A stretch of 64,000 bases of DNA from Candidatus Yonathbacteria bacterium (lineage in GTDB: Bacteria > Patescibacteriota > Minisyncoccia > Phycocordibacterales > JACNGX01): positions 37,167 through 101,166 of the forward strand of contig JAAXWR010000003.1 in assembly GCA_013334825.1 (NCBI GenBank), in the 5' to 3' direction. Positions 2,819 through 61,624 of this stretch are shown in pieces. The notes below the pieces were generated by a model that was given only the letters and a program-made list of their open reading frames with translations, searched no databases and was not told the origin of the DNA. The translations under genes were made by a program, and so were the position numbers. How positions within the stretch are numbered: position 1 is the stretch's first letter; each line of letters begins with the position of its first letter.

Positions 2819-5800
2819 TTATATAGACTCTAAAACTGGAACCTCTCCTTGGACAGGTTGCTCAGCGGGTACAGAGATTTCCGGATTCGCCGGTACCTCC
2901 ACCACCACATCAGGGACAATAGAAACTTCCTGCGTTGCATCAAGAATAGGAAGAACATCTTGTGTTGGAGCAACTGTCTCGGTTACAGGAGGAAGTTGCT
3001 CCACCGCCGGAGCATCTGTTGTTCCCCCATTTCCCGTATTCATCCCCCGTTGTTCCAACAAAGTGCGTAGTTGTTCTTTTGTGACACAGACATCCTCAAG
3101 ACACAATTCTTTTGTCTCAACACGTTCAGATTTAAACACCTTCGCTGTTATTGAGGCAATACCATTTCCTGCGTCAGATAGCCACGTGTTTATACGTTCC
3201 AAAAGACGTCCAATAAGTGTTTTTCCTTCCTCTTTTACAACTGGTTCGTCAACAAAATTATTAAAACGCTCATTTATTGCCTGAAAGCCAAGCACCATAT
3301 AGCCAAGTGTATTCGTTGGATTTGTCATCGACCCGTTATATTGTGTCGCCCAAGGAGACTCATCTCCCATCACACCCATATATTCTGTGATAGTATCACC
3401 TGTGCCCATCCCCTCTTTATAATGAAAACGATAAATGTTTGTGGACAAGAGTGTTTCTAACGCTTCTTGCGGATCCTCTATGAGTTCTTCAATATGTTTA
3501 ATATCACGTCCTGCATCGGCTGTATTTCCTCCCCACCAAACAGATTGGACCATAACCATAATTTTTCCTACTTCTCCAGATTCTCCATCATAGGCATCAA
3601 GTGCACGTCCAATAACCTGTCCAGGTCCAATTGCTTTCATCGCAACGCCCGCTTGAGAGGATGACGTTATATAATCACCTCTTCGAATTGGACCGTTTTC
3701 CAAGGAAACTTTTGTGGGAACATGCCCAAGAAGCCCAACATTAACATATTGTTCTGGTGAGTCATATTTTGTTCCTTCTTCATTATCGTTCCAACGAGAC
3801 CCTGTTTCTGAAACAACACCTATAACAAAAGCATCACTTGAGGCATCACAACGCTTTACCGCATCATCACGCTCAGAACTTAAACAAACAACCTCACCAA
3901 AATCAAAGGGTTCACCTTCTTCATTATCAAAAAACTCTGAAAGATCACCTGCCCCATCATTCCATATAAAATATCGATTTCCATTCGATTGATAGTAAAT
4001 ACGATTTGAAGCTGAAACACGCGCAATCCCAAACTCTCCATCATTGGAAAAAGCCGGTGCAGAAGTCCCATAGGACGTTCGCATAACATAATTTCCCCCC
4101 GTGGAAATTGTTCCATTAACAGTAACCGCATCAGAAAAAGTGAACCCGGACGACGTGCCAGTCGCATCCAGCGTCACCATTCCTCCTGAAGAAACAACCA
4201 TTGAAAGATAATTTGAGGCATCATAGCCAAGACGAAACTGCTCAGTCGTTCCAAGCACATGAAGAAATGCTGAGGGACTCGTCGTCCCGATCCCCACATT
4301 CCCCGACGAATCAATCACAAGGCGGTCGTTCGTGCCGAGAGCAGAGCCACCGGAAATCTTGAACTTGTCGGAATCAGAATCATCGACACCCATCGTGAAG
4401 ATATTGGTCGTTCCGTCGACGAGCTGGAATCCGATCTGAGGATCATAATTTCCGGCATTGGTGTTCCCGATGGAGAGTTGGGTGTTGGAAGCGGTGGCAG
4501 AGAGGATATCGAGAACGGAATCGGGTGTCATATCGCCAAGGCCGAGATAATTATTGGTCGCATCCCAGAAGAACCCGTCGGCATCGTAGGTGAGAGCCGA
4601 GGAGGAAGACCAGTACGGGATATGTCCTGCAGCGCCAGTGCCGGTCGGATAGGAAGCGGTATCCCACGAAAGGGTGCCCCCACTATTGCGAAGGACACCA
4701 TTTGCACTTGTGGTCGGGAGGGTGTAGGTGATATTTGCAGACTGGGCACCGGCCTGGAAGATGGTGGCATAGGAGCCGCTTTGGATGCCGAAGGTGCCGG
4801 CGATGCGGGCATCGCCTCCCGATGGAGTGATGACCAAGTCACCTCCCGAGTTCGTCTGGAAGTCGGTATAGACCGAGCCGCCGGTGTAGGTGAGACGGAG
4901 TTGAGGGTTCGTGGCATCGAGGACGTCGAGACGACGGTCGGGGGCGATGGTGCCGATACCGACATTGCCTTTGAGTACCGTCGTAACGATAGAGTCATTC
5001 CCCAAGACCACCGTATTGCTCCCCAAGCCGATAGCCGAAGCCCCAATAACAATCTCATTGCTTCCCCCTGCCACCGAAGCACGAGTGTCATAGCCGAGGA
5101 AGAGGGAGTTGTTGGAGGTTTGGTTAGCAGTGGAGCCATTGGCGAGGTAGCGACCTGCGTTCGCCCCTATCGCGGAGTTCTGATACCCTGTCGTGTTGGA
5201 GCGGAGGGCTTCCCTCCCTATCGCGGAGTTGTTATACCCTGTGGTATTGTTTTGGAGAGCGTACGACCCTATCGCGGAGTTCTGAAACCCCGTCGTGTTG
5301 GAAGTCAAAGCACTCTGTCCGATACCTGTATTGTACGAAGCGTGAGCCGTCAGTGTCGCCGTAGACCCCATACTGAAGTTCCCTGCATTGATACCGATGA
5401 AGGTATTTCCCCCTTCCGTCGTAATCCCACCGCCATTCAAGCCATAATTGAAGTTATGGATGAAGCGGTCAGAGCCTTTGTAGATAATGCCGTATTCAGA
5501 TGCATGAGTGGTGTTGTCAATCCGAACATTGCCCGAAGCGATGTCTAGTTTCTGTGCAGGCGAAGTGGTGCCGATACCGACATTGCCACCACCTTTCATC
5601 AACAATAGATTGCTATATCCACTAGCAACATTTGCAACTTCAAAGGAACTTAACCAACCAGTGCCGGTGCTAAAATAATATCCACCTAATTTATTAGTTC
5701 CGGGAGAGGCTGCTCCGGAAATAAGAGAATATCCACCATTACTTGAACCTCCATAAACTCCAGCTGGAATATCTCCACTTCCAGCATAATCACCTGTGAA

Positions 5801-8800
5801 TTGAAGTTTGTTTGAGCTTCCAACTGTCACTTGCGCACCGCTTGCTGAAGCAAGAATACTTCCGCTTACCTCCAATTTTGCATTTGGACCTGTCGTCCCG
5901 ATCCCCACCTTTCCATCGGCAAGCACCGTAACTCTATCCGCTCCCGCCGTCTGCAAGCGCAACACATCATCTGAAGCCTCATAGAAGCCCGTGTCCCCGT
6001 CGCCGAAAGCAAGCCCCGTGGAAAGAGCCCCCGTCCCGCCGTTTAGGTGGAGTTTCGCAAGGGGAGAGTCTACCCCCACCCCCACATTCCCCCGCAAAGC
6101 CGTCGTCGTGATACTGCTATTCCCCAAGACCACGCTATTGCTCCCCAAGCCGATAGCCGAAGCCCCGATAACAATCTCATTACTCCCCCCTGCCGCCAAA
6201 GCACGGGTTTCGTTTCCGAAGAAGAGAGAGTTGTTGGAGGTTTCGTTGCTAGAGACATCGGCGAGATAGCGACCTGCATATCGTCCAACCGCCACGTTAT
6301 TACTACCAGTCGTATTATTATAGAGTGAGCCATGACCGATAGCGACGTTTGCAGAACCAGTAGTGTTGCTATTTAAAGACCTAGACCCAAATGCTAAGTT
6401 TAAGTTTCCAGTCGTATTACTTGGAAGCGCAGAGTTCCCAACTGCAGTATTGTATGAAGCTTGAGAAGCCGATGTCGCCGTACTTCCCATTGTAAAGTTC
6501 CCCGCATTGATACCGATAAAGGTGTTATACCCTTCCGTCGTCACCCCACCACCATTCAACCCATAATTGAAGTTATGGATGAAGCGGTCAGAGCCTTTGT
6601 AGATAATGCCGTATTCAGATGCATGAGTGGTGTTGTCAATCCGAACATTGCCCGAAGCGATGTCGAGTTTTTGTGCAGGCGAAGTGGTGCCGATGCCGAC
6701 ATTGCCTTTGAGTACCGTCGTAACGATAGAGTCATTCCCCAAGACCACGCTATTGCTCCCCAAGCCGATAGCATTTGCCCCAATCACAATCTCATTACTC
6801 CCCCCTGCCACCAAAGCGCGGGTGTCATTGCCGAGGAAGACGGAGTTATTGGAGGCTTGGTTAGCAGTGGAGCCATCGGCGAGGTAGCGACCCGCTTGAT
6901 ACCCTAATCCAAAGTTATTCGACCCTGACGTGTTAGCGAAGAGTGCGTACGCACCTATCGCGGAGTTTCGATACCCAGTCCCATTGGAATAGAGGGCGTA
7001 CGCACCTATCGCGGAGTTGTAAAATCCTGTCGCGTTAGCAGCCAAAGCACTCTGTCCGATACCTGTATTGTATGAGGCGTGAGACGTCAGTGTCGCCGTA
7101 GACCCCATACTGAAGTTCCCCGCATTGATACCGATAAAGGTGTTATACCCTTCCGTCGTCACCCCACCACCATTCAACCCATAATTGAAGTTATGGATGA
7201 AGCGGTCAGAGCCTTTGTAGATGATGCCGTATTCAGATGCATGAGTGGTGTTGTCAATCCGAACATTGCCCGAAGCGATGTCGAGTTTTTGCAGTGGGTT
7301 GGTGGTGCCGATGCCGACGTTGCCTGAAGTATCCAACGCTAACAAAGTCGAAGCGCTATTCCAGTCATTGCCCACACGAAAATGTATCGGCGTAGGAGTT
7401 CCTGTTCCAGTCCTATCAGATGCAATAACATGAGATCCATCTGCCGTCCCAACCGCAATGAGTCTGTTCGCATTAGATGCTTTCGCAAGAAACTCAAATG
7501 AATATCCTATACCAGTCGTTCTATTGGAAGTTAGCTTAAATGTCGGATATGTTGCAGCTTGTGGCTGAATACTAAAATTATTACCATTAGGTCTCACGGT
7601 CAAATCTCCACCAGAACCAACGGTAAATTTAACATTATTTGTGGCATCATATCCCAATCTTAATTGCTCACTAGAAGATATTGCCTCCAACATTGCTCCA
7701 GGACTCGTCGTCCCAATCCCCACCTTGCCGTCAGTAAGCACCGTCACCCTATCTGCCCCCGCGGTTTGAAGTCGTAACACGTCATCGCTAGACTCATAAA
7801 ACCCAGTGTCCCCGTCGCCGAAAGCAAGTCCTCCTCCTGTAAGTGCGTACGAATTACCCGCGATAGTAAGAGCTCCCCGCAACCATGCGTCACCCGTTTC
7901 TTTTATTGAAAAACGTGGAGTGCCCGCGACACCAATACCTAAAAGATACGAATTCGCCAGAGGGGCTGTTGGGTTGACCAATAACGAAGCTTTCCCGTAT
8001 GTCGTATCTATTGGTTCAAAATTAAATATCGCTTGTCCCGCGGTAGAAATAGTATCCACAACCATATTTGTCGCATAAACATTGTTGAAACGTTTTGACA
8101 GGGAACCAATATCTGAAGCCACATCAGTTTCTGGATACAAATTTCTTCCCACGACAATATTACCAAGAGCTTCGATGCCATTCTCTACAAAAAGAGAGTG
8201 CTCTTGTGCTAATGGAGTAAGGAGTGTAAGAGGTGTAGCGGATGATGATCCTACCGTCGTAAGCCCTATCGTATCAAACCCAATACGCGCAAATCCACTT
8301 ACTGTCGCCGTATCGACACCTGTCTCACCAGCAGTAACGGAGAAGTTTCCAGTGGATGTAATATCAGAAAATTCGGCGTTGGGAATAATAATTAAAGACG
8401 GCGTTACTGTCATGGACGTCGTATCATCATATACTGTCATTGAATTCCTCACATGTATACCTGATACCACATCAAGTGCCCCCGAGATATAAACATCGCC
8501 TGTTCCATCAATGCCTCGCGTCGAAACACCAGGGCCAACAGAAAGCAACCCTGTCGTAGTATCAATCGTAAGCACATCCGCAAGAGATACGTCTCCCGTA
8601 ACAGATAAGTCTCCTGTAAAAGAAGCTGCCCCTTCCACGGAAACATCTCCCGAAAATGAACCCACCGTACCAGTGATTGACCCTTCAAACGTAGACGCTA
8701 TGATATTCGCACGCGAAATATCTACTCCAGAAAGTTTATCCACGCGCTGAGTAAGTGCAATGGTGCGGAAATTGTCTCCTGTCACCGTGGAAACCTTCGC

Positions 8801-10285
8801 AATCTCCTTACGAAGTTCATTCTCACTTTGCGAAACAAATGTTTCCATTTCCTCGTGCGTTATACCCGTGTGAGAAACAACAATAGGTGACGGCGTCGAA
8901 ACAACTCGTTCAATAACTCTCTCAAGAATGACCGGCGATTCTTTTTGTGGTGTATCTTTCTTGTCTGAAAGATGTGGAGTGGATGAAGTAGATGCATCCG
9001 CAGCAGACAACTCATCTGGAAGATGTTCAGATGCGTAAGAAGAAGTGTCCGTAGCAGATGTTGCCAACCCCTGAGACTTTGGAGATGTTTTTATCCCCGC
9101 GATAAAGCGATACAAACGAAGAGCAACAGTATCTATGTATGTTGTTACTTTTTCTCCTATACCAAAAACATTCGCGACCGTGCCTACTCGCAAGGATGCG
9201 AACATGTCATGGTGATAAAAATTTCTCTCCTGTATAGCGGTCGTTACACTCTCTCCCGCCTGATACATAACAGACGCAAGTGTATCGCCAACAAATGTTT
9301 CGCCTGCGACAAGTGTGTCACGCACTGATGTGAAGAAGGTGAAATATCCAGACGAAAAGGAAGATACTGTATCTGCGATAGTTCTTGTGTATGCAACTGC
9401 TTCTTTGCCTACGTGTTCTGTGAGGAAGGTATGAGAAAATGTGCGGGCAAGTGATGCGCGCATGTTTGCAAACGTCGTCATAAGCAATTCACCCGCGAAC
9501 GTACTGAGAGACGCGAGTGTTGCTGTCATCGCGTGTGTTGTTGTGGTGATGTTCGTCGCGACTGCATTCGTCGTGGTTGTCGTGGTACGCGCGATAGCAT
9601 CTGTGATGGTGTGCGTACCACGTGCGAGAGATGAGGTAAAAGTTTCCACCACATCAATAAACATGTCGTGTGTACCATGGGCAAATGTAGACACAAACGT
9701 AACTGTGGAGAGAGAGGTATCTTCTGTTGTTGTATCATAGTCACTGACTTCATAGTCACTGACTTCTTGTGATGATGTGGGTGAAAGAGACGCGACAACA
9801 TGTTGCAGAGGTGCTGAGACTTCAGAGACGACACGAGAAAGACCGCCCTCATGCGCGGAGAGTATTGCATCCCCCGCAAAAATAGTTGCGAGTACCAGGA
9901 CAGCCGTAAGTAAAAACTTTGCAGTCGCTCCCGTTGAGACAGTCGCTTCCGCAACCTCTTTTATGTGAGAAAATAACACCTTGTTATAGAGGGGTACACC
10001 CATCCCCCCATGCTTCAAGAATACCCCATATGCCTTCTTGGAACGAAGAGAGGATTCGGCAATACGTTTGAAAAATCGTTCGCGCTTTTTCCCTCCATAC
10101 GCGTCCATATACACACAGAGTGAATCAAGGTCAATGAAGCGTGTTCTGTTTTTTATTTCCCCTTTGAGACGACCGTTTCGTGCGAGCATGCTCAAATAAT
10201 CGGATGTGAATCCTGTCAATTCGGCGGCTTTTTTTGATGAAACATACTGCGTTCCTTTTGCAGTAGTAAACGAATCTCGTGACAT
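2819..10285 (-). CDS. giant (2488 aa) membrane-anchored surface protein with tail-fibre-like GIGTTSP repeats
   Basis: Single uninterrupted ORF. N-terminal excisionase-like HTH-like segment (KKAAELTGFTSDYLSMLARNGRLKGEI), one TM helix (FLLTAVLVLATIFAG), then about 2300 aa of Thr/Ser/Gly/Asn-rich beta-repeat sequence. Threefold repeats of about 350 aa (GNVGIGTTSPAQKLDIASGNVRIDNTTHASEYGIIYKGSDRFIHNFNYGLNGGG...) and twofold LAFGDGDTGFYE.SDDVLRLQTAGADRVTVL modules. Confidence 0.8.
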   Translation of the reverse strand: MSRDSFTTAKGTQYVSSKKAAELTGFTSDYLSMLARNGRLKGEIKNRTRFIDLDSLCVYMDAYGGKKRERFFKRIAESSLRSKKAYGVFLKHGGMGVPLYNKVLFSHIKEVAEATVSTGATAKFLLTAVLVLATIFAGDAILSAHEGGLSRVVSEVSAPLQHVVASLSPTSSQEVSDYEVSDYDTTTEDTSLSTVTFVSTFAHGTHDMFIDVVETFTSSLARGTHTITDAIARTTTTTTNAVATNITTTTHAMTATLASLSTFAGELLMTTFANMRASLARTFSHTFLTEHVGKEAVAYTRTIADTVSSFSSGYFTFFTSVRDTLVAGETFVGDTLASVMYQAGESVTTAIQERNFYHHDMFASLRVGTVANVFGIGEKVTTYIDTVALRLYRFIAGIKTSPKSQGLATSATDTSSYASEHLPDELSAADASTSSTPHLSDKKDTPQKESPVILERVIERVVSTPSPIVVSHTGITHEEMETFVSQSENELRKEIAKVSTVTGDNFRTIALTQRVDKLSGVDISRANIIASTFEGSITGTVGSFSGDVSVEGAASFTGDLSVTGDVSLADVLTIDTTTGLLSVGPGVSTRGIDGTGDVYISGALDVVSGIHVRNSMTVYDDTTSMTVTPSLIIIPNAEFSDITSTGNFSVTAGETGVDTATVSGFARIGFDTIGLTTVGSSSATPLTLLTPLAQEHSLFVENGIEALGNIVVGRNLYPETDVASDIGSLSKRFNNVYATNMVVDTISTAGQAIFNFEPIDTTYGKASLLVNPTAPLANSYLLGIGVAGTPRFSIKETGDAWLRGALTIAGNSYALTGGGLAFGDGDTGFYESSDDVLRLQTAGADRVTVLTDGKVGIGTTSPGAMLEAISSSEQLRLGYDATNNVKFTVGSGGDLTVRPNGNNFSIQPQAATYPTFKLTSNRTTGIGYSFEFLAKASNANRLIAVGTADGSHVIASDRTGTGTPTPIHFRVGNDWNSASTLLALDTSGNVGIGTTNPLQKLDIASGNVRIDNTTHASEYGIIYKGSDRFIHNFNYGLNGGGVTTEGYNTFIGINAGNFSMGSTATLTSHASYNTGIGQSALAANATGFYNSAIGAYALYSNGTGYRNSAIGAYALFANTSGSNNFGLGYQAGRYLADGSTANQASNNSVFLGNDTRALVAGGSNEIVIGANAIGLGSNSVVLGNDSIVTTVLKGNVGIGTTSPAQKLDIASGNVRIDNTTHASEYGIIYKGSDRFIHNFNYGLNGGGVTTEGYNTFIGINAGNFTMGSTATSASQASYNTAVGNSALPSNTTGNLNLAFGSRSLNSNTTGSANVAIGHGSLYNNTTGSNNVAVGRYAGRYLADVSSNETSNNSLFFGNETRALAAGGSNEIVIGASAIGLGSNSVVLGNSSITTTALRGNVGVGVDSPLAKLHLNGGTGALSTGLAFGDGDTGFYEASDDVLRLQTAGADRVTVLADGKVGIGTTGPNAKLEVSGSILASASGAQVTVGSSNKLQFTGDYAGSGDIPAGVYGGSSNGGYSLISGAASPGTNKLGGYYFSTGTGWLSSFEVANVASGYSNLLLMKGGGNVGIGTTSPAQKLDIASGNVRIDNTTHASEYGIIYKGSDRFIHNFNYGLNGGGITTEGGNTFIGINAGNFSMGSTATLTAHASYNTGIGQSALTSNTTGFQNSAIGSYALQNNTTGYNNSAIGREALRSNTTGYQNSAIGANAGRYLANGSTANQTSNNSLFLGYDTRASVAGGSNEIVIGASAIGLGSNTVVLGNDSIVTTVLKGNVGIGTIAPDRRLDVLDATNPQLRLTYTGGSVYTDFQTNSGGDLVITPSGGDARIAGTFGIQSGSYATIFQAGAQSANITYTLPTTSANGVLRNSGGTLSWDTASYPTGTGAAGHIPYWSSSSALTYDADGFFWDATNNYLGLGDMTPDSVLDILSATASNTQLSIGNTNAGNYDPQIGFQLVDGTTNIFTMGVDDSDSDKFKISGGSALGTNDRLVIDSSGNVGIGTTSPSAFLHVLGTTEQFRLGYDASNYLSMVVSSGGMVTLDATGTSSGFTFSDAVTVNGTISTGGNYVMRTSYGTSAPAFSNDGEFGIARVSASNRIYYQSNGNRYFIWNDGAGDLSEFFDNEEGEPFDFGEVVCLSSERDDAVKRCDASSDAFVIGVVSETGSRWNDNEEGTKYDSPEQYVNVGLLGHVPTKVSLENGPIRRGDYITSSSQAGVAMKAIGPGQVIGRALDAYDGESGEVGKIMVMVQSVWWGGNTADAGRDIKHIEELIEDPQEALETLLSTNIYRFHYKEGMGTGDTITEYMGVMGDESPWATQYNGSMTNPTNTLGYMVLGFQAINERFNNFVDEPVVKEEGKTLIGRLLERINTWLSDAGNGIASITAKVFKSERVETKELCLEDVCVTKEQLRTLLEQRGMNTGNGGTTDAPAVEQLPPVTETVAPTQDVLPILDATQEVSIVPDVVVEVPANPEISVPAEQPVQGEVPVLESI
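4950..7330. repeat. near-identical intragenic DNA repeats (200-400 bp units) inside the giant gene
   Basis: Segments about 5370-5592, 6481-6712 and 7100-7320 are near-identical (...gaagcggtcagagcctttgtagataatgccgtattcagatgcatgagtggtgttgtcaatccgaacattgcccgaagcgatgtc...). A second family at about 4960-5160, 6090-6290 and 6700-6900. A third at about 5880-6060 and 7700-7860. Confidence 0.8.
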
Positions 10286-10403
10286 TTAGTATTATTTTAC
10301 AATATTATTTCGTCACCCGCTCTCTTTTTTTCTCAAAACTGTGGATAAATAAAACAAGATAAAATCATGACGAAATATCTTTATAGAACAACACCATTTC
10401 ACC

Positions 10404-11174: not shown

Positions 11175-11325
11175 ATGCGAGTTGCGAGCACACTTACGAA
11201 TAACGAATGTGTACGAATATACGAATGATATATAACATGTGTGAAAGAAACTTTTTATTCGTATATTCGTACACATTCGTTATTCGTATGTTCATATTTC
11301 TTCATTCACATCTCGTTTCGTAGGC
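11160..11325. repeat. intergenic repeat cluster: GCGAGTT heptads plus a 66-nt dispersed repeat
   Basis: gcgagttgcgag at 11177-11188 abutting the holA start; cacttacgaataacgaat (11191-11210); 66-nt element 11257-11322 near-identical to 15358-15423. Confidence 0.7.
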
Positions 11326-11365
11326 TCCCTGCACCACGCAAGATACAGAGCAGGCTCGACATGTA

Positions 11366-12283
11366 TTATTCAATGCGTTCATTTGTTATCGCAACAAGTC
11401 GTGTTCGGTATTCTTCTTCATCAATGGCTCCATTGGCATAGAGTTTTTCTACACCGGCGAGGTATTGTTCTTTCACTTCTTGAGCGGTAAGAGAACGGGC
11501 GTAGATACGGACGTCGTCGATAATGCCATCCCAAAATCTATTACTATAATGCCAGCCAATGACTGTCTTGGTTGGTGTAAAAACCCCAGGAACTATATTC
11601 GTCAAATGTGTTTTTTTTATCACACCATTCAAATATATCTTCACTGAAGACCCATCATACGTACCCATGACATGATACCATTCACCTGTATTTAAGATAT
11701 TCTCAGTCGTTACGATATTTTCTGTGGAGGATGTCCCGTTTGCAACTGAAAATACTAAACTATTATTACTGCCCGAAAAAAGCACCAGCCTTAACTGAGC
11801 CCACGCAGGACCTACTTCACTTGAAAAGATCGTCATCTTAGTAGGATTCCAATGGCTAGCTTTTACCCATGCTGAAACAGCGCCTTGGTTGGGGTTTATA
11901 ACTGTGGCATTATTTAGATTAACATAATCATTCACCCCATCAAACGACAACGCATATTTACTCACCCCCGCATTGTAGGTATCGGTGGTAAAGGTTGCAC
12001 CAGATATGGTACCGTGATTACCCCAACCAGACACATCTCTGACAGTAACGCCTGACCCTTCTTCGAAGTTCCACATACCGACTGCGTCGGCACCCATAAT
12101 ACGGTCGTTTTGGGCAGCAAATTGGAGTGCTGTTTTTTGTTTTGCATCATCACGTGCTTTGTTGACGCTGGCAAGGACGATGGAAGAAAGAAGTCCGATG
12201 ATGGAAACGACAACAAGGAGTTCGATGAGCGTGAAGGCGCGGTATGTTGATGCTCTCTGTGATGAGAACGATATGTGCATCAT
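11366..12283 (-). CDS. type IV pilin-like protein with C-terminal LamG/concanavalin-like domain
   Basis: Prepilin N-terminus RAFTLIELLVVVSIIGLLSSIVLASV (class III signal with conserved Glu). C-terminal Laminin_G_3-like segment (DGVNDYVNL...GEWYHVMGTYDG...IYLNGV...DDVRIYARSL). Start chosen at ATGATG 12283, downstream of the TGCTATACT motif; the ORF track extends to 12415. Confidence 0.7.
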   Translation of the reverse strand: MMHISFSSQRASTYRAFTLIELLVVVSIIGLLSSIVLASVNKARDDAKQKTALQFAAQNDRIMGADAVGMWNFEEGSGVTVRDVSGWGNHGTISGATFTTDTYNAGVSKYALSFDGVNDYVNLNNATVINPNQGAVSAWVKASHWNPTKMTIFSSEVGPAWAQLRLVLFSGSNNSLVFSVANGTSSTENIVTTENILNTGEWYHVMGTYDGSSVKIYLNGVIKKTHLTNIVPGVFTPTKTVIGWHYSNRFWDGIIDDVRIYARSLTAQEVKEQYLAGVEKLYANGAIDEEEYRTRLVAITNERIE

Positions 12284-12472
12284 GATAGATATAGTATAGC
12301 ATGTGCGAGTTGCGAGTTGCGAGTTAATAATTATGTGGTGGATATAGCATTTGTCAGTTTTTCTCTGTATTTCATTTTCCAAAGCATCAAACAACACATG
12401 CCAAATCACAAACAAATATCAATCATCAAATGCTAAAACGTTGTTTGAATATTAGGTATTAGAATTTGAATA

Positions 12473-14908: not shown

Positions 14909-15521
14909 GAAACATAGAGACAGTATATCAGATAGGCGTCGAGTTGCGAGTACGATTACAGATGAAGAACCCTGATGCAGAGCATCGAAATATTGAGAAT
15001 AGCGAATGTCACGAATCGTAAAACAAGAACTGGCGACTCTTCATCTAGCATCAAGTTCAGGATGACACTCTTTTCCATCTGTCATTCTGTGCTTGCCCCA
15101 GAATCCACGTCGGAGGCGTTATGTATTATTCCATTGACGTGGATCCTGAATCAAGTTCAGGATGACGAACGAGAGGGTTTAGGATGGCGGACAGTGGCGT
15201 TCAGGACGACGGATCTTGTTGAGTTACGAATTATAAGTTTCAAGAACACTTACGAATAACGAATACGATTTCTTTTTCATTTTATAGTTTTCTTCTTCAT
15301 ATTTCTATTTTCTTATTTCATCGTTTATCGTTTTTTATAGTTTATCGTTTCTTAGTCATTCGTATATTCGTACACATTCGTTATTCGTATGTTCATATTT
15401 CTTCATTCACGTCCCGTTTCGTATGTTCGTACAAGTTCGTAATTCGTAACCCTTAATTCTTGATTCGTGCTTCGTGATTCTTGATTCGAGTGTTCGTCCC
15501 TATCACCTCTCACCTATTTCC
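14909..15521. repeat. 613-bp intergenic region with direct and inverted repeats plus dispersed repeat copies
   Basis: TCAAGTTCAGGATGAC at 15051-15066 and 15151-15166 (exactly 100 nt apart; partial third copy about 15197-15212). IR CCACGTC/GACGTGG (15105-15142). cgtttatcg-type AT-rich repeats at 15266-15357. 66-nt element at 15358-15423. Confidence 0.7.
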
Positions 15522-16156: not shown

Positions 16157-18676
16157 TTACTGTTGTCCCGCTGGACCCATGGGAAATACCGTTTGGGTTC
16201 CTTGCGGAGTATTCGGCGCAGTTGGGTATGCCACTGGTGCAACAGGAAGTGTTGCTGGAGCAGAAGCATACGGTCCCGGCGCACTCTGATACGCAACTGG
16301 GGCAACAGGGGCTTGTGGAACATAGCGCATCGCCCGTTTTGCTTTATGCTCGTTATAAAAGAGCACGAGCTGACGAATAAGCACAATGATAATCAAGAGT
16401 AAGATCGTAAAGATAAGCCATCCGAGAAGCGTGTCAGGGAAGATTCCATCCCACCCAAAGAATGCTGCGGCGGCACCGGCATTGCGGTTTGCCTTAGCAT
16501 CAGCTTCAACATTGTCCGTCACACGAATGAAAATACTATTGGAAACTTCATTGTGTTTTGTGCTTTCAAGACGAGCAACGTTTTCAATCGTCATACCGGC
16601 ACGTGCATCATCAGTAACAACCATATCGAGCGTTACTTCACGTGATTCTCCCGAACGGAGTTCTCCGATATACCAGACAACCTCACGACGTGTGCCATCA
16701 TATCGGAGACTTTCATCGGCATTTGCAAATTCAAGGTAAAAGGGAATAAGATCATGAATAGTCGTCTCTTCAAGTGTATAGTCACCCGTGTTTTCTACTT
16801 GAATTGTAAAGCGCAATGTCTGTGCCTTTTCCGCAAAGACATCTGTCGGCGAACCATTTTGATAATCAATGTTCTCAACAGTCTTTGTTATACGTGCACC
16901 ATATTCTTTTACAGAAACAGGTTGTACTGGCCGTGTTGGCGTGTCATTCGGTGCACCAAGCGTCGTAAAGGACACGATGGCGCCGCGAGAAATACCGTAG
17001 GTATTTTGGACAACAAGACGATAATAATACGTTGTCGCGTAATCAAGTCCAAACATTGACTGATTCACCGCAACTGAAGAACTCCCCACGGACTGTGTCG
17101 CCGTTGTACGTCCAAGCGATTGAGTTGTTCCCCACTCAAACCACGCTGTCGTATATGCCGATGTTGGAACAGAAGCATTCCCCGTAAACCGTGCACTTGT
17201 GCGCGCCACGTTTACTGCAGACCCAGTTGTAGCAACAGGACCTTTATTGTCAATCCATCCACCATCACCGGTGCGGAAAGAGACAATGCTTCCGTAAACC
17301 GTACCAGCATCGTTACGCGCCGCGGCACGATAGTAATACGTTGTATTATTTTGAAGACCAGATACATATTCATTGAAGTTTCCTGCGGATGAACCTTGTC
17401 GATCACGACTTGTGTTGTACCCAAGAGAAAGTGTCGATCCATATTCAAACCAACGTTCTGTATCGCTATCACCTTGTGGATTTACATATCCATTCAATGT
17501 TGCTGACGAAGCTGTTACATTTGAAGGTTGATTGGTAGAAACAAATGGACGTTCGCTATCATCACCATCTTCATCTGTTGTGAAATACAAGCGATCACCA
17601 TATACCTTTCCTTCATCATTTTCACCAACGCAACGGAAATAATATTTTGTGTCTCCTTCAAGATCATCAATAAGCTGTTCAACCGTTTCTGTGTCGTCAT
17701 AGGAACGTTTATTTGTATCTTCATTCATAGATGTCGTCTCGCCGTATTCAAACCATACATCCGTATCTAAATCATTCGGATTGACATAACAACGTAAACG
17801 CGCGGAATCCTGTTCAATATCTGTTGCTGACTTTGTCTCAACAGCTGGCTCTTCTCCGTTATTCTCTTCTTCTGTGTGAAAGCTCAGGACAGATCCATAG
17901 TCAGAGCCAGCGTCATTACGTCCCACACAACGATAATAGTACGTTGTATCGTCAGAAAGCCCTGAGAGTGCCTGTTCGGCGGTTGTTGAAGAGCTATATG
18001 AACGTTGAGATGTACTCTTTGAAAGAGAAGAACTTGATGTCCCCCACTCAAACCACACATCGGTTGTGTCACCATTCGGGTCCACATCACAACGAAGTGT
18101 CGCGGAGTCTTCATCGATATTTGTTGCTGACTTTGTCGTTACCTCAGGGGCATCATAATCGGGGTCGTTATTGTTGCATCCGCCACAACCACATGTTGAA
18201 TTTCCACAGGAATCATATTGATAATTGTCAGTATAATCGTACGAAGAGCTCGAATAGTAGTATGGCTCGTAATCATACGAACTGTACGATGATTGATATG
18301 AACTATAATAATCTTGATACGGGTCATATGACGTTCCGTAGTCGGAGTTATCATAAACATAAGACGATGAGTAGTCGTTATTATAGTAACTATCATCATA
18401 ATAAGAGCTATAGTTATCATCGTATCCGTACGAATAATCGTCATAATAATACGAACCATATCCGTCGTCCGCGTAATAATCGTATGAATCATACGACGCA
18501 TAGCCATCATCGTAATATCCGTAGTCAGTATAGTACGACCCATAGTCATCCCAATAGTCGGCATGCGCTGTTTGGGGAAATACGGGCGCGACAAGTCCGA
18601 TCATAAGCGAAAACATCGCCATGACTGCACCGCCCATGCGGGCGAAATTGTGTTGTGAAGTGAAGATGGTATTCAT
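16157..18676 (-). CDS. cell-surface protein: signal peptide, Tyr/Asp/Ser-rich low-complexity region, four Fn3-like repeats, DUF11-like domain, C-terminal TM anchor and Pro-rich tail
   Basis: N-terminal signal/TM. Residues about 40-170 are almost only Y, D, S, G (DYWDDYGSYYTDYGYYDDGYASYDSYDYY...). Repeated ...NP.GD.T.VWFEYG......T.......V.GL...T.YYYR..A.ND.G...G....F modules. LTLDMVVTDDARAGMTIENVARL (DUF11-like). TM LLGWLIFTILLLIIIVLI followed by a PAP-rich tail. Confidence 0.75.
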   Translation of the reverse strand: MNTIFTSQHNFARMGGAVMAMFSLMIGLVAPVFPQTAHADYWDDYGSYYTDYGYYDDGYASYDSYDYYADDGYGSYYYDDYSYGYDDNYSSYYDDSYYNNDYSSSYVYDNSDYGTSYDPYQDYYSSYQSSYSSYDYEPYYYSSSSYDYTDNYQYDSCGNSTCGCGGCNNNDPDYDAPEVTTKSATNIDEDSATLRCDVDPNGDTTDVWFEWGTSSSSLSKSTSQRSYSSSTTAEQALSGLSDDTTYYYRCVGRNDAGSDYGSVLSFHTEEENNGEEPAVETKSATDIEQDSARLRCYVNPNDLDTDVWFEYGETTSMNEDTNKRSYDDTETVEQLIDDLEGDTKYYFRCVGENDEGKVYGDRLYFTTDEDGDDSERPFVSTNQPSNVTASSATLNGYVNPQGDSDTERWFEYGSTLSLGYNTSRDRQGSSAGNFNEYVSGLQNNTTYYYRAAARNDAGTVYGSIVSFRTGDGGWIDNKGPVATTGSAVNVARTSARFTGNASVPTSAYTTAWFEWGTTQSLGRTTATQSVGSSSVAVNQSMFGLDYATTYYYRLVVQNTYGISRGAIVSFTTLGAPNDTPTRPVQPVSVKEYGARITKTVENIDYQNGSPTDVFAEKAQTLRFTIQVENTGDYTLEETTIHDLIPFYLEFANADESLRYDGTRREVVWYIGELRSGESREVTLDMVVTDDARAGMTIENVARLESTKHNEVSNSIFIRVTDNVEADAKANRNAGAAAAFFGWDGIFPDTLLGWLIFTILLLIIIVLIRQLVLFYNEHKAKRAMRYVPQAPVAPVAYQSAPGPYASAPATLPVAPVAYPTAPNTPQGTQTVFPMGPAGQQ

Positions 18677-20390: not shown

Positions 20391-20571
20391 ATCTTTTTTC
20401 TAATTTTCTAGGTTTAAAAAACTCTTCTTCTTTCATATCAAAAACAAGTCCCCTTTGTCAACTTGTTCGCTATAAACTTTTTTCAGTTTTCATATGCATA
20501 CACTACAAAAAACTTTTATATTTTCTTTTCTACATATTATTCATCATTCACGTCTATGCTATACTATACAC

Positions 20572-22278
20572 ATGACAACTTTTCAGGATCCGAAACAAGA
20601 CGAACGTTTTAGAGAACTCCAAAAAAAAGAGCAGGAAGACTTAGTCGTCATGCTCGCGGAACGCCACGGGTTCCCTCATACACGCCTTTCAACAGCCACT
20701 ATCAATACCGATGCACTTCGTCTCATTCCTGAAGCAGAGGCACGTAAGGCAAACGTTGCCCCATTCGCACTCATTGGAAAGCGCGTCAAAGTCGGTGCAA
20801 CTTCCCCCACAAGTCCTGAAACTCTCGCCATCGTCGACGACCTCTCACGTCGTGGATATGAACCAGAGGTCGTCATGATTTCTCAAACAAGTATTGAACA
20901 CGCATGGGTGCTCTATCCGGAAATATCGAAAGCAGAAGAAACAGAAGCGGGTGTTTTTGATGTTTCAGGACGAGAGCTAGTCTCTCTCGCACAAGACATC
21001 AAGGGATTATCTGGTATCACCGATGCTGTCACAGCGATTACCGACACATCCTCTTCGCGCAATAAAATTTCTCGCGTTCTTGAAGCACTTCTGGGTGGAG
21101 CAGTCGCAGTAGGTGCATCAGATATTCACTTTGAACCAGAAGCATCTGGTGCACGTGTACGCATGCGTATCGACGGTGTTCTTATTGATGTATCTCGTTT
21201 AAATGGAGATATGTATCGTTTTCTTTTGTCTCGTATCAAACTTCTTTCAGGACTCAAGTTAAACATTACGGAGAATTCTCAAGATGGACGTTTTAGTATT
21301 CGGTTGCCAGAAAACGCTATTGAAATTCGTACTTCTGTTATCCCAGAAGAACACGGTGAGTCTGTTGTTATGCGTCTTTTAAATCCTGAGTCACTCACCA
21401 TTCCTTTTGAAGAACTTGGTATTGATCCATATCTATTCGCCATTCTCAAAAAAGAAATCAATCGTCCCGATGGATTGGTACTCACCACTGGCCCCACTGG
21501 TTCAGGAAAAACAACAACTCTCTACTCATTTCTCAAATATATTCACACTCCCGAAGTAAAAATCATCACCATAGAAAACCCAATTGAATATCATCTTGAC
21601 GGCATCACTCAAACCCAAACGAATACCAAGGAAGGATATACATTCGTCCAAGGTCTCAAAACAGCACTTCGTCAAGATCCCGATATTATCATGGTTGGTG
21701 AAATCCGTGACTCCGATACGGCGCAAACGGCTTTGAACGCAGCTTTTACCGGACACCTTGTTTTTTCAACACTACATACCAATAACGCAGCGGGGGTCAT
21801 TCCCAGACTGGTAAACCTTGGCGTTAACCCAAAACTTATTACTTCGGGCCTCAATGTTTCACTCGCACAACGTCTCACACGTCGTCTTTGCCCTACATGT
21901 AAGCGTCCGCACGTCTTTGACGCAGAGGAGCAAAATATCGTTGAACGAGCAATTGACCGGTACAACAAAAAACGCGGAACGGACAAATCGTTCGCGCAAG
22001 GAACTTTTTTTGATGCGAATACAGATACAGAAAACACCTGTCCTGTATGCGGCGGGCTTGGCTATAAAGGACGTATCGGCGTATATGAAGGCATCCTCAC
22101 TGATGAACATATCGAAGCGGTCATTTTAAGTGACAACCTCACTGAACGAGAAATAAAAAAAGCGGCCGAAGCCCAAAATATTCCGAGCATGGCCGAAGAT
22201 GGTATCGCAGGAAAAATGTATGCGGGTTTGACCTCATTTCATGAGCTTCGTCGAGTTGTGGATGTCGATGAAACGTGA
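20572..22278 (+). CDS. pilB: type IV pilus assembly ATPase PilB (GspE-family secretion ATPase)
   Basis: T2SSE N-terminal domain; Walker A LTTGPTGSGKTTTL; Asp/His boxes; C-terminal tetracysteine zinc motif CPTC...CPVCG. Start at ATG 20572, immediately after the TGCTATACT motif; the ORF track extends to 20494. Confidence 0.9.
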   Translation: MTTFQDPKQDERFRELQKKEQEDLVVMLAERHGFPHTRLSTATINTDALRLIPEAEARKANVAPFALIGKRVKVGATSPTSPETLAIVDDLSRRGYEPEVVMISQTSIEHAWVLYPEISKAEETEAGVFDVSGRELVSLAQDIKGLSGITDAVTAITDTSSSRNKISRVLEALLGGAVAVGASDIHFEPEASGARVRMRIDGVLIDVSRLNGDMYRFLLSRIKLLSGLKLNITENSQDGRFSIRLPENAIEIRTSVIPEEHGESVVMRLLNPESLTIPFEELGIDPYLFAILKKEINRPDGLVLTTGPTGSGKTTTLYSFLKYIHTPEVKIITIENPIEYHLDGITQTQTNTKEGYTFVQGLKTALRQDPDIIMVGEIRDSDTAQTALNAAFTGHLVFSTLHTNNAAGVIPRLVNLGVNPKLITSGLNVSLAQRLTRRLCPTCKRPHVFDAEEQNIVERAIDRYNKKRGTDKSFAQGTFFDANTDTENTCPVCGGLGYKGRIGVYEGILTDEHIEAVILSDNLTEREIKKAAEAQNIPSMAEDGIAGKMYAGLTSFHELRRVVDVDET

Positions 22279-26749: not shown

Positions 26750-29365
26750 TTGAAAGAATGTATTTATACACCCTCCATGCGAAAAAATAGTCTTTTTATG
26801 GTATTATCAAACAGTATGCGTACACACCCATTCAACACACATCTCAAAAAAAGTGATATTAAAAAGCGTTGGAAAAATCTCCTCCCTGTTCTCAGTATAT
26901 TAGGAGGTCTTGCTTTTTTTTCAATAAGCGCACTTATCATTTGGGCAAGTCTTATGCCTATGCCTGATTTTGATTCATTTATTGAACGAAAAATCGCCCA
27001 ATCAACAAAAATATATGACCGCACAGGTGAAATTCTTCTTTATGATATTCATGAGGACATTCGTCGTACTGTGGTGCCCGGAGATTCAATTTCCCCTTTT
27101 ATTAAACAAGCAACTATCTCCATAGAAGATAGTGAATTTTATAATCATCACGGCGTTCGTCCGCTCGCATTTTTACGTGCGCTTATTGTAAATATCCTTT
27201 CTATGGATTTTTCTCAAGGTGGATCAACAATAACCCAACAAGCAGTAAAAAACACAATGCTTACACAAGAAAAGACAATCTCTCGTAAAGTCAAAGAATG
27301 GGTTCTGGCAGTTCGTCTTGAACAAATCATGACAAAAGAAGAAATATTGACACTCTACCTCAATGAATCACCGTACGGAGGAAATATTTACGGTGTACAA
27401 GAAGCAACACGAGAGTTTTTTGGAAAAGATGCATCTAACGTAACACTTGCGGAGGCTGCATATATTGCCGCTATTCCTCAAGCACCTACGCGCTATTCTC
27501 CCTATGGAAATAATGTGGATAAACTTAAAACTCGCCAACGACTTGTTCTTTCACGCATGAAAGAACTTGGTGTTATCGATGATTCTACCTACACACAAGC
27601 ACTTGCTGAAGAAGTTGTTTTTCAACCACAAAGCCAGTTCGGTATGCGCGCACCACATTTCGTTTTTTATATCAGATCGTACATAGAAGAAACATATGGT
27701 TCAGCAGCCCTCGAAGAAGATGGACTGAAGATAATTACAACTCTCGATTGGAAACTTCAAGAGAAAGCACAAGAAATTGTTAAACGACACGCACTCGCGA
27801 ATGAGACAAATTTCAACGCGGAAAATGCAGGACTGGTCGCAATTGATCCAAATACAGGACAAATCATTACAATGGTTGGCTCACGTGATTACTTCGATAA
27901 AACAATTGATGGAAACTTCAACGTAACTCTTGATACAAACCGCCAACCAGGATCAGCATTCAAACCTTTTGTGTATGCGGCTGCATTTATGAAAGGATAC
28001 ACTCCTGATACTGTTGTGTTTGACCTTCCTACAATATTTGACACACGTTGTTCTCCTAATGGGACACCTATTTCTGAAGGTGCGACAACTGATGATTGTT
28101 ATAGTCCTGTTAATTATGATGGAACATATCGTGGACCTGTCACACTCCGCGAAGCGCTTGCACAGTCACTCAATATTCCTGCTGTAAAAGTACTCTACCT
28201 CACTGGTATTAATAATGCCCTTGATGTAGCAAAAAAAATGGGTATTAACGGTCTAAAAGACAAAAATAGATATGGACTCACACTCGTTCTTGGTGGTGGA
28301 GAAGTATCTCTCCTTGATATGACGAGTGCATACGGTGTATTTGCACATGAAGGTGTTCGCCTTCCTCCTACTGGCATACTTCGTGTTGAAGAACAAGATG
28401 GAACAATACTCGAAGAATATAAACCAATAGAATCCTCAGTTCTTGATAGCGGTGTTGCACGTATGATTTCTGATGTGTTATCAGATAATATTGCTCGTGC
28501 TCCAGCGTTTGGTGACAATTCATATCTCAATTTTCCTGATCGAGATGTTGCGGTTAAAACAGGTACTACAAACGATTATCGCGATGCGTGGATTATGGGG
28601 TATATTCCACAACTTGCAGTTGGTGCATGGGCCGGAAATAATGACAACTCACCAATGGAAAAGAAAGTTGCTGGATATATCATCGCACCACTTTGGAATG
28701 AGTTTATGCAAACGGTCCTTGCGACATATCCAGCAGAAAACTTTAATCCGGCACCAGAAACATCTCCCGATCTACCACCAATTATTCGTGGTATTTGGAA
28801 AGGTGGTGTGACATATGTTGTTGATACAATAAGCGGTGGGCTTGCAACAGAATTTACTCCTAAAGAAACAGTCGAAGAACGTGCAATTACAAATGTTCAT
28901 TCATTATTATATTGGGTTGATAAAGATAATCCAACACATATGCGAACAGATAATCCAGCAAACGACCCACAGTTTACATTATGGGAATATCCTGTCCGTA
29001 TTTGGGCAGCGCAACAAGGATATCGTGATGGTGATAATTCAGGAAAACCATCTTACTATGACACTATTCATACAACAGCAAGTAAACCCTCAATCACCAT
29101 AACAGAACCGAGACGAAATGAAATATTTGGAAAAAGTGAACGAATAACAATCTCTCTTTCAAGTGCTACCTCACTTTCACGTGCTGATTTCTTCCTTGAT
29201 GATACACTTATTGGTTCGGTACATACACAACCCTTCCTATTCTCTTTTATTCCTGAACTTGTGGAACAGGGAAAACAAACAGGAGATCACACACTATCTG
29301 TTGTCGCATATGATATGTTATACAATAAAAATGAGGCAACACTACCAATCCATATTACTGAATAA
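26750..29365 (+). CDS. class A penicillin-binding protein (bifunctional transglycosylase/transpeptidase, PBP1A-like) with C-terminal extension
   Basis: N-terminal TM; GT51 motifs EDSEFYNHHGV and RQP-GSAFKP (SxxK transpeptidase); SD AAGAGG 12 nt upstream. Confidence 0.9.
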   Translation: MKECIYTPSMRKNSLFMVLSNSMRTHPFNTHLKKSDIKKRWKNLLPVLSILGGLAFFSISALIIWASLMPMPDFDSFIERKIAQSTKIYDRTGEILLYDIHEDIRRTVVPGDSISPFIKQATISIEDSEFYNHHGVRPLAFLRALIVNILSMDFSQGGSTITQQAVKNTMLTQEKTISRKVKEWVLAVRLEQIMTKEEILTLYLNESPYGGNIYGVQEATREFFGKDASNVTLAEAAYIAAIPQAPTRYSPYGNNVDKLKTRQRLVLSRMKELGVIDDSTYTQALAEEVVFQPQSQFGMRAPHFVFYIRSYIEETYGSAALEEDGLKIITTLDWKLQEKAQEIVKRHALANETNFNAENAGLVAIDPNTGQIITMVGSRDYFDKTIDGNFNVTLDTNRQPGSAFKPFVYAAAFMKGYTPDTVVFDLPTIFDTRCSPNGTPISEGATTDDCYSPVNYDGTYRGPVTLREALAQSLNIPAVKVLYLTGINNALDVAKKMGINGLKDKNRYGLTLVLGGGEVSLLDMTSAYGVFAHEGVRLPPTGILRVEEQDGTILEEYKPIESSVLDSGVARMISDVLSDNIARAPAFGDNSYLNFPDRDVAVKTGTTNDYRDAWIMGYIPQLAVGAWAGNNDNSPMEKKVAGYIIAPLWNEFMQTVLATYPAENFNPAPETSPDLPPIIRGIWKGGVTYVVDTISGGLATEFTPKETVEERAITNVHSLLYWVDKDNPTHMRTDNPANDPQFTLWEYPVRIWAAQQGYRDGDNSGKPSYYDTIHTTASKPSITITEPRRNEIFGKSERITISLSSATSLSRADFFLDDTLIGSVHTQPFLFSFIPELVEQGKQTGDHTLSVVAYDMLYNKNEATLPIHITE

Positions 29366-29372
29366 TATATAT

Positions 29373-29411
29373 AAAAAACACACATCTTTATAATTATGAT
29401 GTGTGTTTTTT
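29373..29411. terminator. bidirectional terminator hairpin between PBP1A and the dnaN operon
   Basis: AAAAAACACACATC-tttataattat-GATGTGTGTTTTTT. Confidence 0.65.
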
Positions 29412-29667
29412 ATATAATACGTTCAATATGTATATGGGGTATATTTTTTTGTATATCTTCTAATACTTCCTTTTTATGAAGAAGTATCTCATTTTTTATT
29501 GTCGAACGACAAGAGAGAAAAATAGTTCCTTGTTTATATGAAATAACATCTTCTGAAATTGATATATGGCATATTGATGATATAGATACACTACATGTTT
29601 TTTTGACACTGTGTGTGTCAGGAACAAACTGAGTAAATCGTTCAAGAAAAGAATTAATGGAAAACAT
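29410..29667 (-). CDS. small hypothetical protein downstream of dnaN
   Basis: 85-aa ORF starting 14 nt after the dnaN stop and ending at the terminator; AT-rich; no recognised motif. Confidence 0.3.
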   Translation of the reverse strand: MFSINSFLERFTQFVPDTHSVKKTCSVSISSICHISISEDVISYKQGTIFLSCRSTIKNEILLHKKEVLEDIQKNIPHIHIERII

Positions 29668-29680
29668 AATTGATATGTTT

Positions 29681-32783: not shown

Positions 32784-32848
32784 TATATAAATAAAAAAAC
32801 AAATAACACAACCTTTTCAAGGTTGTGTTATTTGTTTATGATGGAGGA

Positions 32849-33444: not shown

Positions 33445-33492
33445 CGCCTTTTTCCTTGCTCAAACAAGGAAAAAGGCGTACAATACGGAAAT

Positions 33493-61610: not shown

Positions 61611-61624
61611 GTGTATAGTATAGC

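Follow-up and report, generated by a model that had tools for sequence, protein, structure and literature searches.

A stretch of 64,000 nucleotides from Candidatus Yonathbacteria bacterium (the window hereafter) carries on its minus strand a single uninterrupted open reading frame (ORF) of 2488 codons (2819-10285, stop codon 2819-2821), which begins with the first possible start codon following the upstream stop. The encoded 2488-aa protein is identical to the NCBI entry 'MAG: hypothetical protein HGB03_03710 [Candidatus Yonathbacteria bacterium]', and the contig carrying this gene is 388,826 bp long. From its N-terminus onwards the protein consists of a small winged helix of the helix-turn-helix (HTH) type, a basic linker, one hydrophobic helix, a stalk, a conserved neck, a long fibre with repeated modules and two chaperone-like modules in tandem, which are followed by a cap and a low-complexity tail. 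A Pfam scan with the whole protein returned no domain above threshold, and the domain map given below is derived from family alignments, profiles and structural models. The architecture argues for a cellular type-II membrane protein in which a surface fibre made of phage parts serves contact with a host or partner cell while an HTH domain resides in the cytoplasm, and this is the reading that we consider likely.

The winged helix (residues 5-63, 10097-10273; all features of the gene lie on the minus strand) is of the HTH_17, excisionase or MerR type as judged from the family alignment and the model, and is predicted to be cytoplasmic. The first 172 residues alone gave no match in a word-indexed homologue search, in a PDB sequence search or in Pfam. 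An exhaustive search with residues 1-480 retrieved 470 representative clusters at E<=1e-3, nearly all of which match only residues ~4-65 and which together form a uniform family of ~300-330 aa proteins composed of two tandem HTH copies, a linker, one transmembrane (TM) helix near residue 240-260 and a short tail. Members of this small family match HTH_17 (PF12728) with 35-45 bits (cutoff 27) and TIGR01764 with 42 bits. Residues 1-84 of the giant protein align gap-free to 39 family segments, and HTH_17 is matched by 33 of the 40 aligned segments; the putative HTH_17 membership of the giant protein itself is one by transitive homology only. An AlphaFold model of the domain, computed from the family alignment, reaches a mean predicted local distance difference test (pLDDT) score of 84 and has the winged-helix order beta-beta-alpha-turn-alpha-beta-beta-alpha, with strands at residues 6-9, 12-16, 42-45 and 48-52 and helices at 17-24, 28-37 and 53-63. 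A PDB sequence search with the HTH profile gave nothing useful. The top Foldseek matches to the model are the mycobacteriophage Pukovnik Xis (4j2n, root-mean-square deviation (rmsd) 1.6 A), pIP501 TraN, BldC (6amk, rmsd 1.4 A, TM-target 0.80), the excisionase RdfS (8dgl) and MerR-family regulators, so that all close structural matches are DNA binders. Xis, BldC, RdfS, TraN and RacA are small, soluble excisionase- or MerR-like DNA binders and are the best structural matches to residues 5-63, whereas in the giant protein a TM anchor and a very large ectodomain are attached to the domain, whose sequence by itself is too divergent to pass the HTH_17 threshold. TraN consists of two tandem excisionase-like folds and would thus resemble the small family with its two HTH copies; with the single HTH of the giant protein, Foldseek covers only about half of its 112-117 residues. 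In the family HTH the recognition helix contains invariant residues (Y, D-Y, R, G). The wing of the giant protein lacks the conserved Trp and reads TRF where the family has xW[FY]. Fold, charge and the conserved recognition helix favour DNA binding by the tethered cytoplasmic HTH as the most likely role of the domain.

The HTH is followed by a basic linker (residues 64-118, 9932-10096), which is predicted to be helical at least over residues 67-83, and by the only TM-like segment of the protein (residues 119-144, 9854-9931), a signal anchor predicted from hydropathy and flanking charge to have its N-terminus inside. This segment contains the top Kyte-Doolittle windows of the whole protein, and the net charge changes from +11 over residues 1-118 to -11 over residues 146-220. 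By the positive-inside rule this flip in charge across the helix would place the HTH in the cytoplasm and ~2340 residues outside the membrane. An earlier reading, made from the DNA sequence without database searches (the sequence-only reading hereafter), had recognised an excisionase/MerR-type HTH within the first ~60 residues and an N-in protein with one TM helix and a huge ectodomain; fold and family bear out the former, and hydropathy and flanking charge agree with the latter at the level of prediction.

The HTH and the TM helix recur at the start of other giant proteins, and these belong to a family that is closely associated with the small proteins described above. The alignment of the small family was scanned against one genome per species, which gave 253 loci, 80 of which were retained, all of them from Patescibacteria and mostly from Kaiserbacteria and other Paceibacteria. 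Of the retained loci, 71 extend for at least 1.5 kb beyond the small gene on its downstream side, and in 63 of these a large ORF follows right after the small gene, 'large' being defined as at least 600 aa or reaching the end of the locus sequence, with a start within 2 kb on the same strand. A profile made from the HTH alignment finds the family HTH at the opening of all 63 large ORFs (E 1e-11 to 1e-23). The start of the giant gene therefore does not lie downstream of the HTH, an objection that the sequence-only reading had itself raised. In a simple hydropathy scan, 27 of 47 HTH-bearing large ORFs have a TM-like segment at residues ~118-306. A search with the whole giant protein retrieved further giants in which this HTH and then a TM helix come first, namely P0005 (3068 aa), P0006 (1992 aa) and P0007 (3447 aa). 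The small partner measures ~320 aa and combines a tandem pair of HTH_17 domains with a TM helix at its C-terminus (2xHTH-TM), and the giant gene follows it directly (L002-L081, L024:10001-18073 and L084:4417-16344 in Kaiserbacteria-type Patescibacteria). Where the context is complete, the order in the relatives is SecA, GatB, 2xHTH-TM, giant and a 23S-rRNA-IVP-like gene.

A second hallmark of the family is a conserved neck (VIERVV...ENELRKEIA...ALTQRVDKLSGVDI; residues 445-560, 8606-8953 in the giant gene of the window), which was delimited by an iterated profile. The neck spans ~120-140 residues and is found in ~70 related ORFs, mostly large ones, typically at residues ~250-500; P0007 and P0009 also contain it, and beyond the neck the proteins of the family diverge. 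The giant protein of the window displays the complete architecture with the HTH at residues 5-63, the TM helix at 119-144, the neck at 445-560 and a variable distal fibre. Neither the HTH-TM-neck-fibre family nor its 2xHTH-TM partner gene was found described in the papers covered by a literature search. The pairing with the small gene across the family, the neck and the tandem chaperones at the C-terminus had been overlooked in the sequence-only reading.

The promoters of the giant genes share a common layout in ~50 related loci, in which the sequence TTATCCACA is followed after 46-47 nt by the 15-nt palindrome CTAGTAAAATACTAG and then by a conserved 5' leader, TAAATCGnnCnnCCGAAC. The palindrome has a -10-like TAAAAT at its centre and is located ~30-60 nt upstream of the giant genes (e.g. 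L007:11426-11440). In 1.17 Mb of related loci hardly any copy lies elsewhere than in a giant-gene promoter, and the palindrome is a candidate operator. As judged by sequence, this promoter layout extends to the gene of the window, where an exact match to TTATCCACA (10340-10348, minus strand), which is the DnaA-box consensus, lies 55 nt upstream of the ATG and 45 nt from the -10-like element ATTGTAAAATAATAC (10289-10303, minus strand), the diverged counterpart of the CTAGTAAAATACTAG palindrome. The ATG begins four bases past ATTGTAAAATAATAC, and the -10-like TAAAAT ends 9 nt before it. This spacing suggests that the mRNA of the giant gene may be leaderless or have a very short leader, which would fit the lack of a Shine-Dalgarno sequence at this gene. 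A scan with promoter and terminator consensus sequences gave nothing useful for it. TTATCCACA itself is found, on the strand of the gene, ~45 nt before the -10-like elements of several promoters, namely those of the giant gene, SecA and dnaA; in related loci it precedes the -10 of SecA promoters by ~45 nt and, in the window, it stands upstream of dnaA. It is therefore not a site specific to the giant gene, a role for which it was considered and rejected, and its distribution suggests a general promoter-upstream element of these genomes beyond an origin signal. Further copies in the window are located at 32515-32523 (with TTATCAACA at 32504-32512), 55052-55060 and 27514-27522, and it also occurs in many related loci.

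The ectodomain begins with a stalk rich in Thr, Ser, Ala and Val (residues 145-444, 8954-9853), for which no homologues were found, and continues beyond the neck into a fibre that is made of repeated units. The shaft (residues 561-987, 7325-8605) includes the unit X1 (LAFGDGDTGFYESSDDVLRLQTAGADRVTV...GKVGIGTT) and is followed by module A (residues 988-1193, 6707-7324), which starts with GNVGIGTT and contains 17-residue NTxIGxxAL turns, module B (residues 1194-1398, 6092-6706), the unit X2 (residues 1399-1566, 5588-6091), module C (residues 1567-1772, 4970-5587) and the distal fibre (residues 1773-2113, 3947-4969). X2 is a partial copy of X1 (5866-6016 versus 7681-7831, 78%), so that in the order X1-A-B-X2-C a partly duplicated unit precedes both A and C. 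The motif G[NKT]VG[IV]G occurs eight times. The distal fibre includes the unit 'YTLPTTSANGVLRNSGGTLSWDTA', which in homologues directly precedes the S74 cleavage site. PHROG matches are to tail-spike and virion-structural families, with the tail spike phrog_4636 at 2.6e-29, and residues 986-1400 match, with 30-43% identity (best 8e-15), 78 records from phages whose annotations read tail spike, tail fibre or tail structural protein; a PDB sequence search with one repeat module gave nothing useful. The tail-fibre character that had been assigned to these modules from their sequence is borne out by phrog_4636 and the phage records.

Modules A, B and C are related at the DNA level in an uneven fashion. 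Near-identical repeats had been noted before, and these are confirmed as three 261-nt segments (5328-5588, 6447-6707 and 7065-7325) that are 90-92% identical, with longest exact shared runs of 110, 104 and 59 nt; the module size of ~350 aa that had been proposed with them does not hold, as the modules comprise ~206 aa and their starts are 206 and 373 aa apart. Over whole modules the nucleotide identity is 76-85%, with C being 85% identical to A. Module B is a mosaic whose 5' 261 nt are homogenised with A and C and whose centre is only ~50% identical to either. This pattern extends to synonymous positions: where two modules encode the same amino acid, A and C use the identical codon at 80-86% of positions throughout, whereas B shares the codon with A or C at 84-89% of such positions in the first 87 codons and at only 36-41% of those in the central part (Fisher p ~3e-7 and ~8e-7). 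A mosaic at synonymous sites is inexplicable by constraint on the protein and therefore points to gene conversion or recombination between the modules, as had been supposed from the repeats alone. The three 206-aa modules thus indicate duplication followed by partial homogenisation through gene conversion.

The distal end of the fibre carries two modules that are reminiscent of the autochaperones of phage tail proteins. The first is a barrel of the phi29 gp12 D4 type (Peptidase_G2-like; residues 2114-2250, 3536-3946), which was identified by profile and by fold. A search of the PDB with the barrel profile retrieved 6qz9_A and 3gqh_A, both the phi29 pre-neck appendage gp12, and 28nb_A, the D4 domain of the Dpo31 tail spike. 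The profile alignment falls on DxAEYF, the motif with which the released gp12 fragment starts (residue 1 of 3gqh_A is D692, residue 692 in 6qz9_A), and its counterpart in the giant protein is the junction G2113/D2114 followed by LSEFF, which retains the Asp-x-x-Glu-aromatic pattern. Similarly, Dpo31 D4 is traced from Asp664 (PMC13317679). The barrel is modelled with a pLDDT of 80-91 and matches 3gqh_A (E 2.6e-6) and 3suc (6.7e-6) in Foldseek with a probability of 1.0, and a D4 beta-barrel fold is accordingly predicted for residues 2114-2250. The second module is a degenerate, S74-like intramolecular chaperone (residues 2251-2345, 3251-3535). Its match to PF13884 is below the cutoff (12.7-14.5 bits against 22) and starts only at profile position 9, and four of four subfamily members match PF13884, with a best value of 7.8e-5. 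The catalytic dyad of S74 is Ser(i)/Lys(i+5), and replacement of the Ser by Ala blocks cleavage in endoNF, T5 pb1 and MyRF (PMC8326128, PMC4690869). The giant protein retains the lysine (K2261) and has A2256 in place of the nucleophile (AGRDIK), so that the dyad is incomplete, whereas the Ser is kept in the three closest homologues (SSRQLK, STRETK and SLREYK; canonical SDERLK). Since A2256 replaces the nucleophile, the S74-like domain probably does not cleave itself.

The S74-like module is followed by a helical segment and a two-cysteine cap (residues 2346-2415, 3041-3250), which was recognised by motif conservation. The cap ELCLEDVCVTKEQLRTLLE (residues 2393-2412, window 3050-3109) is common to P0165, P0169, P0167, P0164, P0003 and P0006; its motif LC[LV]xxxC[VI]TxxxL..LL occurs in tail-fibre-like proteins of varied length and lineage, one of which is annotated as from Candidatus Fimivivens, and the region is modelled as a hairpin plus helix with a pLDDT of 72-83. 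The protein ends in a low-complexity tail rich in Pro, Val and Glu (residues 2416-2488, 2822-3040). The C-terminal 320 aa gave no phage match, and a PDB sequence search with the C-terminus as a single sequence returned nothing useful.

In its repeat modules the giant protein is homologous to phage tail spikes and fibres, among which phi29 gp12, Dpo31 of phage Carin-1, the endosialidase endoNF and T5 pb1 are the closest comparisons. It shares with gp12 the C-terminal barrel of D4 fold and its DxxE[YF][YF] start motif and has an S74-like unit as well, the Ser of which is replaced by Ala as in the engineered non-cleaving variants endoNF S911A, pb1 S1264A and MyRF S587A. In contrast to the phage proteins, the giant protein is encoded by a cellular gene on the chromosome and starts with an HTH and a TM anchor where those have a virion adaptor, and two types of chaperone stand in tandem. 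A further likeness exists to MYRF, a membrane-bound transcription factor of eukaryotes that contains a phage S74 ICA domain. Its polypeptide likewise unites a domain for DNA binding, a TM helix and an intramolecular chaperone derived from tailspikes (PMC3742443, PMC8326128). MYRF cleaves itself and thereby frees its DNA-binding domain, whereas here the chaperones are at the far extracellular end, so that cleavage could not free the HTH, and the DNA-binding fold is a different one. The giant surface proteins that have been reported from Patescibacteria and other episymbionts are also very large, bear TM segments or signal peptides and adhesion domains, and are thought to function in host contact (PMC13059738, PMC10633639). 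The accounts of such giants that were consulted make no mention of a conserved cytoplasmic HTH, a neck, a 2xHTH-TM partner or tandem phage chaperones.

Taken together, these features suggest the following picture for the giant protein. The signal-anchor helix at residues 119-144 would keep the basic winged helix in the cytoplasm and export ~2340 residues, and the exported part would present modules of the phage tail-fibre and tail-spike type on a base that is specific to the family, namely the stalk and the conserved neck. The fibre probably forms a homotrimer, as the homologous phage proteins are trimeric. Folding would most likely start at the C-terminus with the gp12-type autochaperone barrel, followed by the S74-like chaperone, and any maturation cleavage would be expected at G2113/D2114 and not at the S74 site, since the nucleophile Ser of the latter is lost. 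The most likely role of the fibre is contact with, or adhesion to, the surface of a partner or host cell. This fits the view that very large Patescibacteria proteins with TM segments or signal peptides are candidates for host interaction (PMC13059738) and the finding that adhesins are essential for epibiotic growth (PMC10633639). The tethered HTH might serve in regulation, possibly that of its own promoter, or in anchorage to the nucleoid.

Several observations weigh against this picture. The HTH of the giant protein is below every Pfam and NCBIfam threshold, with no match to HTH_17 or TIGR01764 even at E<=1, and its Foldseek E-values are weak (0.07-0.6, with probabilities near 1) because the domain is small. 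At the other end of the protein, the match of the barrel to PF11962 is partial (profile positions 49-94 of 228) and, at 22.5 bits (E 8.5e-5), falls just short of the cutoff of 25. For the S74-like part the model has a pLDDT of only 35-50, and the profile of its subfamily finds no solved S74 structure, which makes the S74-like assignment tentative. A metagenome scan with the N-terminal 560 aa found no close orthologue by which the number of repeats could be checked. In addition, the perfect CTAGTAAAATACTAG palindrome is missing from the window, which holds only the diverged half-match, and tblastn revealed no small 2xHTH-TM partner and no second HTH in the 64 kb. With both the partner and the perfect palindrome missing, this lineage may work differently from the Kaiserbacteria-type loci, with which the window shares no synteny.

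The gene might, in principle, not be what it appears to be, either because its repeats were misassembled or because it belongs to a phage. A collapse or expansion of the repeat region would make the length of the protein and the number of its modules artefactual, and the exact runs of up to 110 nt that are shared between modules could give rise to such an error; moreover, a contig end truncates ~47 of the 63 related large ORFs, which implies that genes of this type often break assemblies. However, the reading frame stays open for 7.5 kb, the contig extends over 388,826 bp, and the three modules differ from each other at 15-24% of bases in a structured mosaic, all of which renders a misassembly improbable. 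An exact look-up found no second assembly of the contigs of the protein. That the gene encodes the tail fibre of a prophage, tailocin or mobile element and not a cellular surface protein is extremely unlikely, even though its modules resemble those of phages, as do the two C-terminal chaperones. Housekeeping genes are its neighbours, with nothing viral-looking in the 10 kb to its left or right, the protein begins with an HTH and a TM anchor in place of a virion-attachment domain, the C-terminal 320 aa are without a phage match, and in the relatives the gene is fixed on the chromosome after SecA and GatB. A prophage origin was thus rejected on genomic context.

The remaining alternatives concern the function of the HTH. 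ToxR, TcpP, CadC and VtrA have an N-terminal cytoplasmic DNA-binding domain, one TM helix and an extracytoplasmic C-terminus, an arrangement that is predicted for the giant protein as well, and it is conceivable, if doubtful, that the latter is a contact-sensing TM regulator of this kind in which binding or clustering of the fibre on a host surface alters the oligomerisation of the tethered HTH and so switches promoters including its own. The DNA-binding-type fold of the HTH and the near exclusivity of the 15-nt palindrome over the -10 of the relatives' giant-gene promoters would suit such a role. The adjacent, paralogous single-pass partner of the relatives likewise recalls the pairs ToxR-ToxS, TcpP-TcpH and VtrA-VtrC (PMC11323476, PMC10140157). 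The window, however, has only the diverged half-palindrome and no partner gene, and a fibre of ~2300 residues would be an unusual sensor input where the ToxR-type proteins have a small sensor domain. Neither a Trans_reg_C nor an OmpR-type domain was found, and the DNA-binding domain is of the excisionase/MerR (HTH_17) class and not of the OmpR/PhoB type. The description 'ToxR/CadC-like' in the sequence-only reading consequently stands for the predicted topology and fails for the family, since a protein with a different DNA-binding class is not a member of it. A comparably tentative alternative is that the HTH has lost DNA binding and become a cytoplasmic docking module, which pairs with the 2xHTH-TM protein or other machinery in order to position, export or anchor the fibre. 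The same domain is present in both proteins, the two genes are adjacent in 63 of 71 loci, and the locus adjoins SecA in the relatives; the HTH of the giant protein, furthermore, is divergent, without a Pfam match and with its wing Trp replaced. This is countered by the strongly basic character of the domain and linker (+11), by the invariant residues in the recognition helix and by the fact that all close structural matches are DNA binders, and the gene of the window has no adjacent partner with which to dock. Compared with either of these, the more elaborate proposal of a one-polypeptide 'touch sensor' of episymbionts, in which the phage-derived fibre reports host contact to the tethered HTH, and the latter, jointly with the 2xHTH-TM partner, controls a palindromic operator of its own and perhaps a programme for host attachment, must be regarded as rather improbable. 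The reading of the giant protein as a cellular contact fibre with a cytoplasmic HTH is therefore preferred here.

In the window the giant gene is flanked on one side by genes for a SpoU methylase, DoxX and tRNA-Lys. The other side begins with a holA-like gene directly upstream, followed by a pilin-like Laminin_G_3 protein with an N-methyl motif and PolA and, further along, by a DUF11/FN3 surface protein, a type IV pilus ATPase and RuvB, while dnaN and dnaA are found at a distance of ~20 kb, with dnaA 21 kb away. Other genes of the envelope or of cell contact are located at 11366-12415, 16157-18676, 20494-22278 and 37203-39065 and encode the pilin-like protein (N_methyl plus Laminin_G_3), the DUF11/FN3 protein, the type IV pilus ATPase and a TraG/VirD4-like P-loop protein; the DUF11/FN3 protein comprises 839 aa and contains an internal repeat with copies 300 nt apart (17748-17837 and 18048-18137). 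The region at 28000-34000 is probably the replication origin region. It contains dnaN (29681-30814) and dnaA (31060-32403) with DnaA boxes upstream of the latter, its GC content drops to 0.32-0.36, and the sign of the GC skew flips near 33 kb.

A few further elements of the window deserve mention. An intergenic repeat of 71 nt (ATTCGTATATTCGTACACATTCGTTATTCGTATG...) occurs in two copies that are 94% identical, the first of which (11257-11327) covers the beginning of the holA-like gene (start at 11276) and reaches into the intergenic DNA immediately before it, and the second of which (15358-15428) is intergenic and lies ~450 nt upstream of the start of PolA (14908). Heptamer arrays of the type (GCGAGTT)n are present at 12265-12325 and 61589-61684, each preceded by a shared box, TATAGTATAGCA. 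An antisense ORF of 356 aa (4478-5548, plus strand) is nested in the giant gene; it was rejected as a gene and is probably a by-product of the repetitive coding strand, which is rich in Gly, Ser, Thr and Asn codons. In the relatives the giant gene is followed by a 23S_rRNA_IVP gene (L024:18077-18568, L084:16562-16933, L085:12026-12382), and the giant P0005 has an FGE-sulfatase domain at its C-terminus. The four-helix-bundle family 23S_rRNA_IVP includes Avd, the accessory protein of diversity-generating retroelements, and FGE-sulfatase is the usual fold of the targets of such elements. The giant gene of the window was rejected as a target of this kind, as the window contains neither template and variable repeats nor a reverse transcriptase or Avd gene, and no C-terminal C-type lectin or FGE-sulfatase fold was found.

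The recognition of hosts by Patescibacteria and their attachment to them are largely unknown, and the giant surface proteins which are the main candidates for these functions are mostly unannotated. For one such giant a full domain map is now at hand, and it places the protein within a widespread and recognisable family that is defined by an HTH, a TM helix, a neck and a variable fibre and that is often accompanied by a 2xHTH-TM partner gene and a conserved promoter. It also illustrates the reuse of phage tail-fibre parts by a cell, including two different autochaperones, of which the degenerate S74-like unit is a natural counterpart of the non-cleaving mutants made in the laboratory. The predicted physical link between an extracellular fibre and a cytoplasmic domain of the DNA-binding type could reveal contact-dependent control of gene expression in ultra-small cells.

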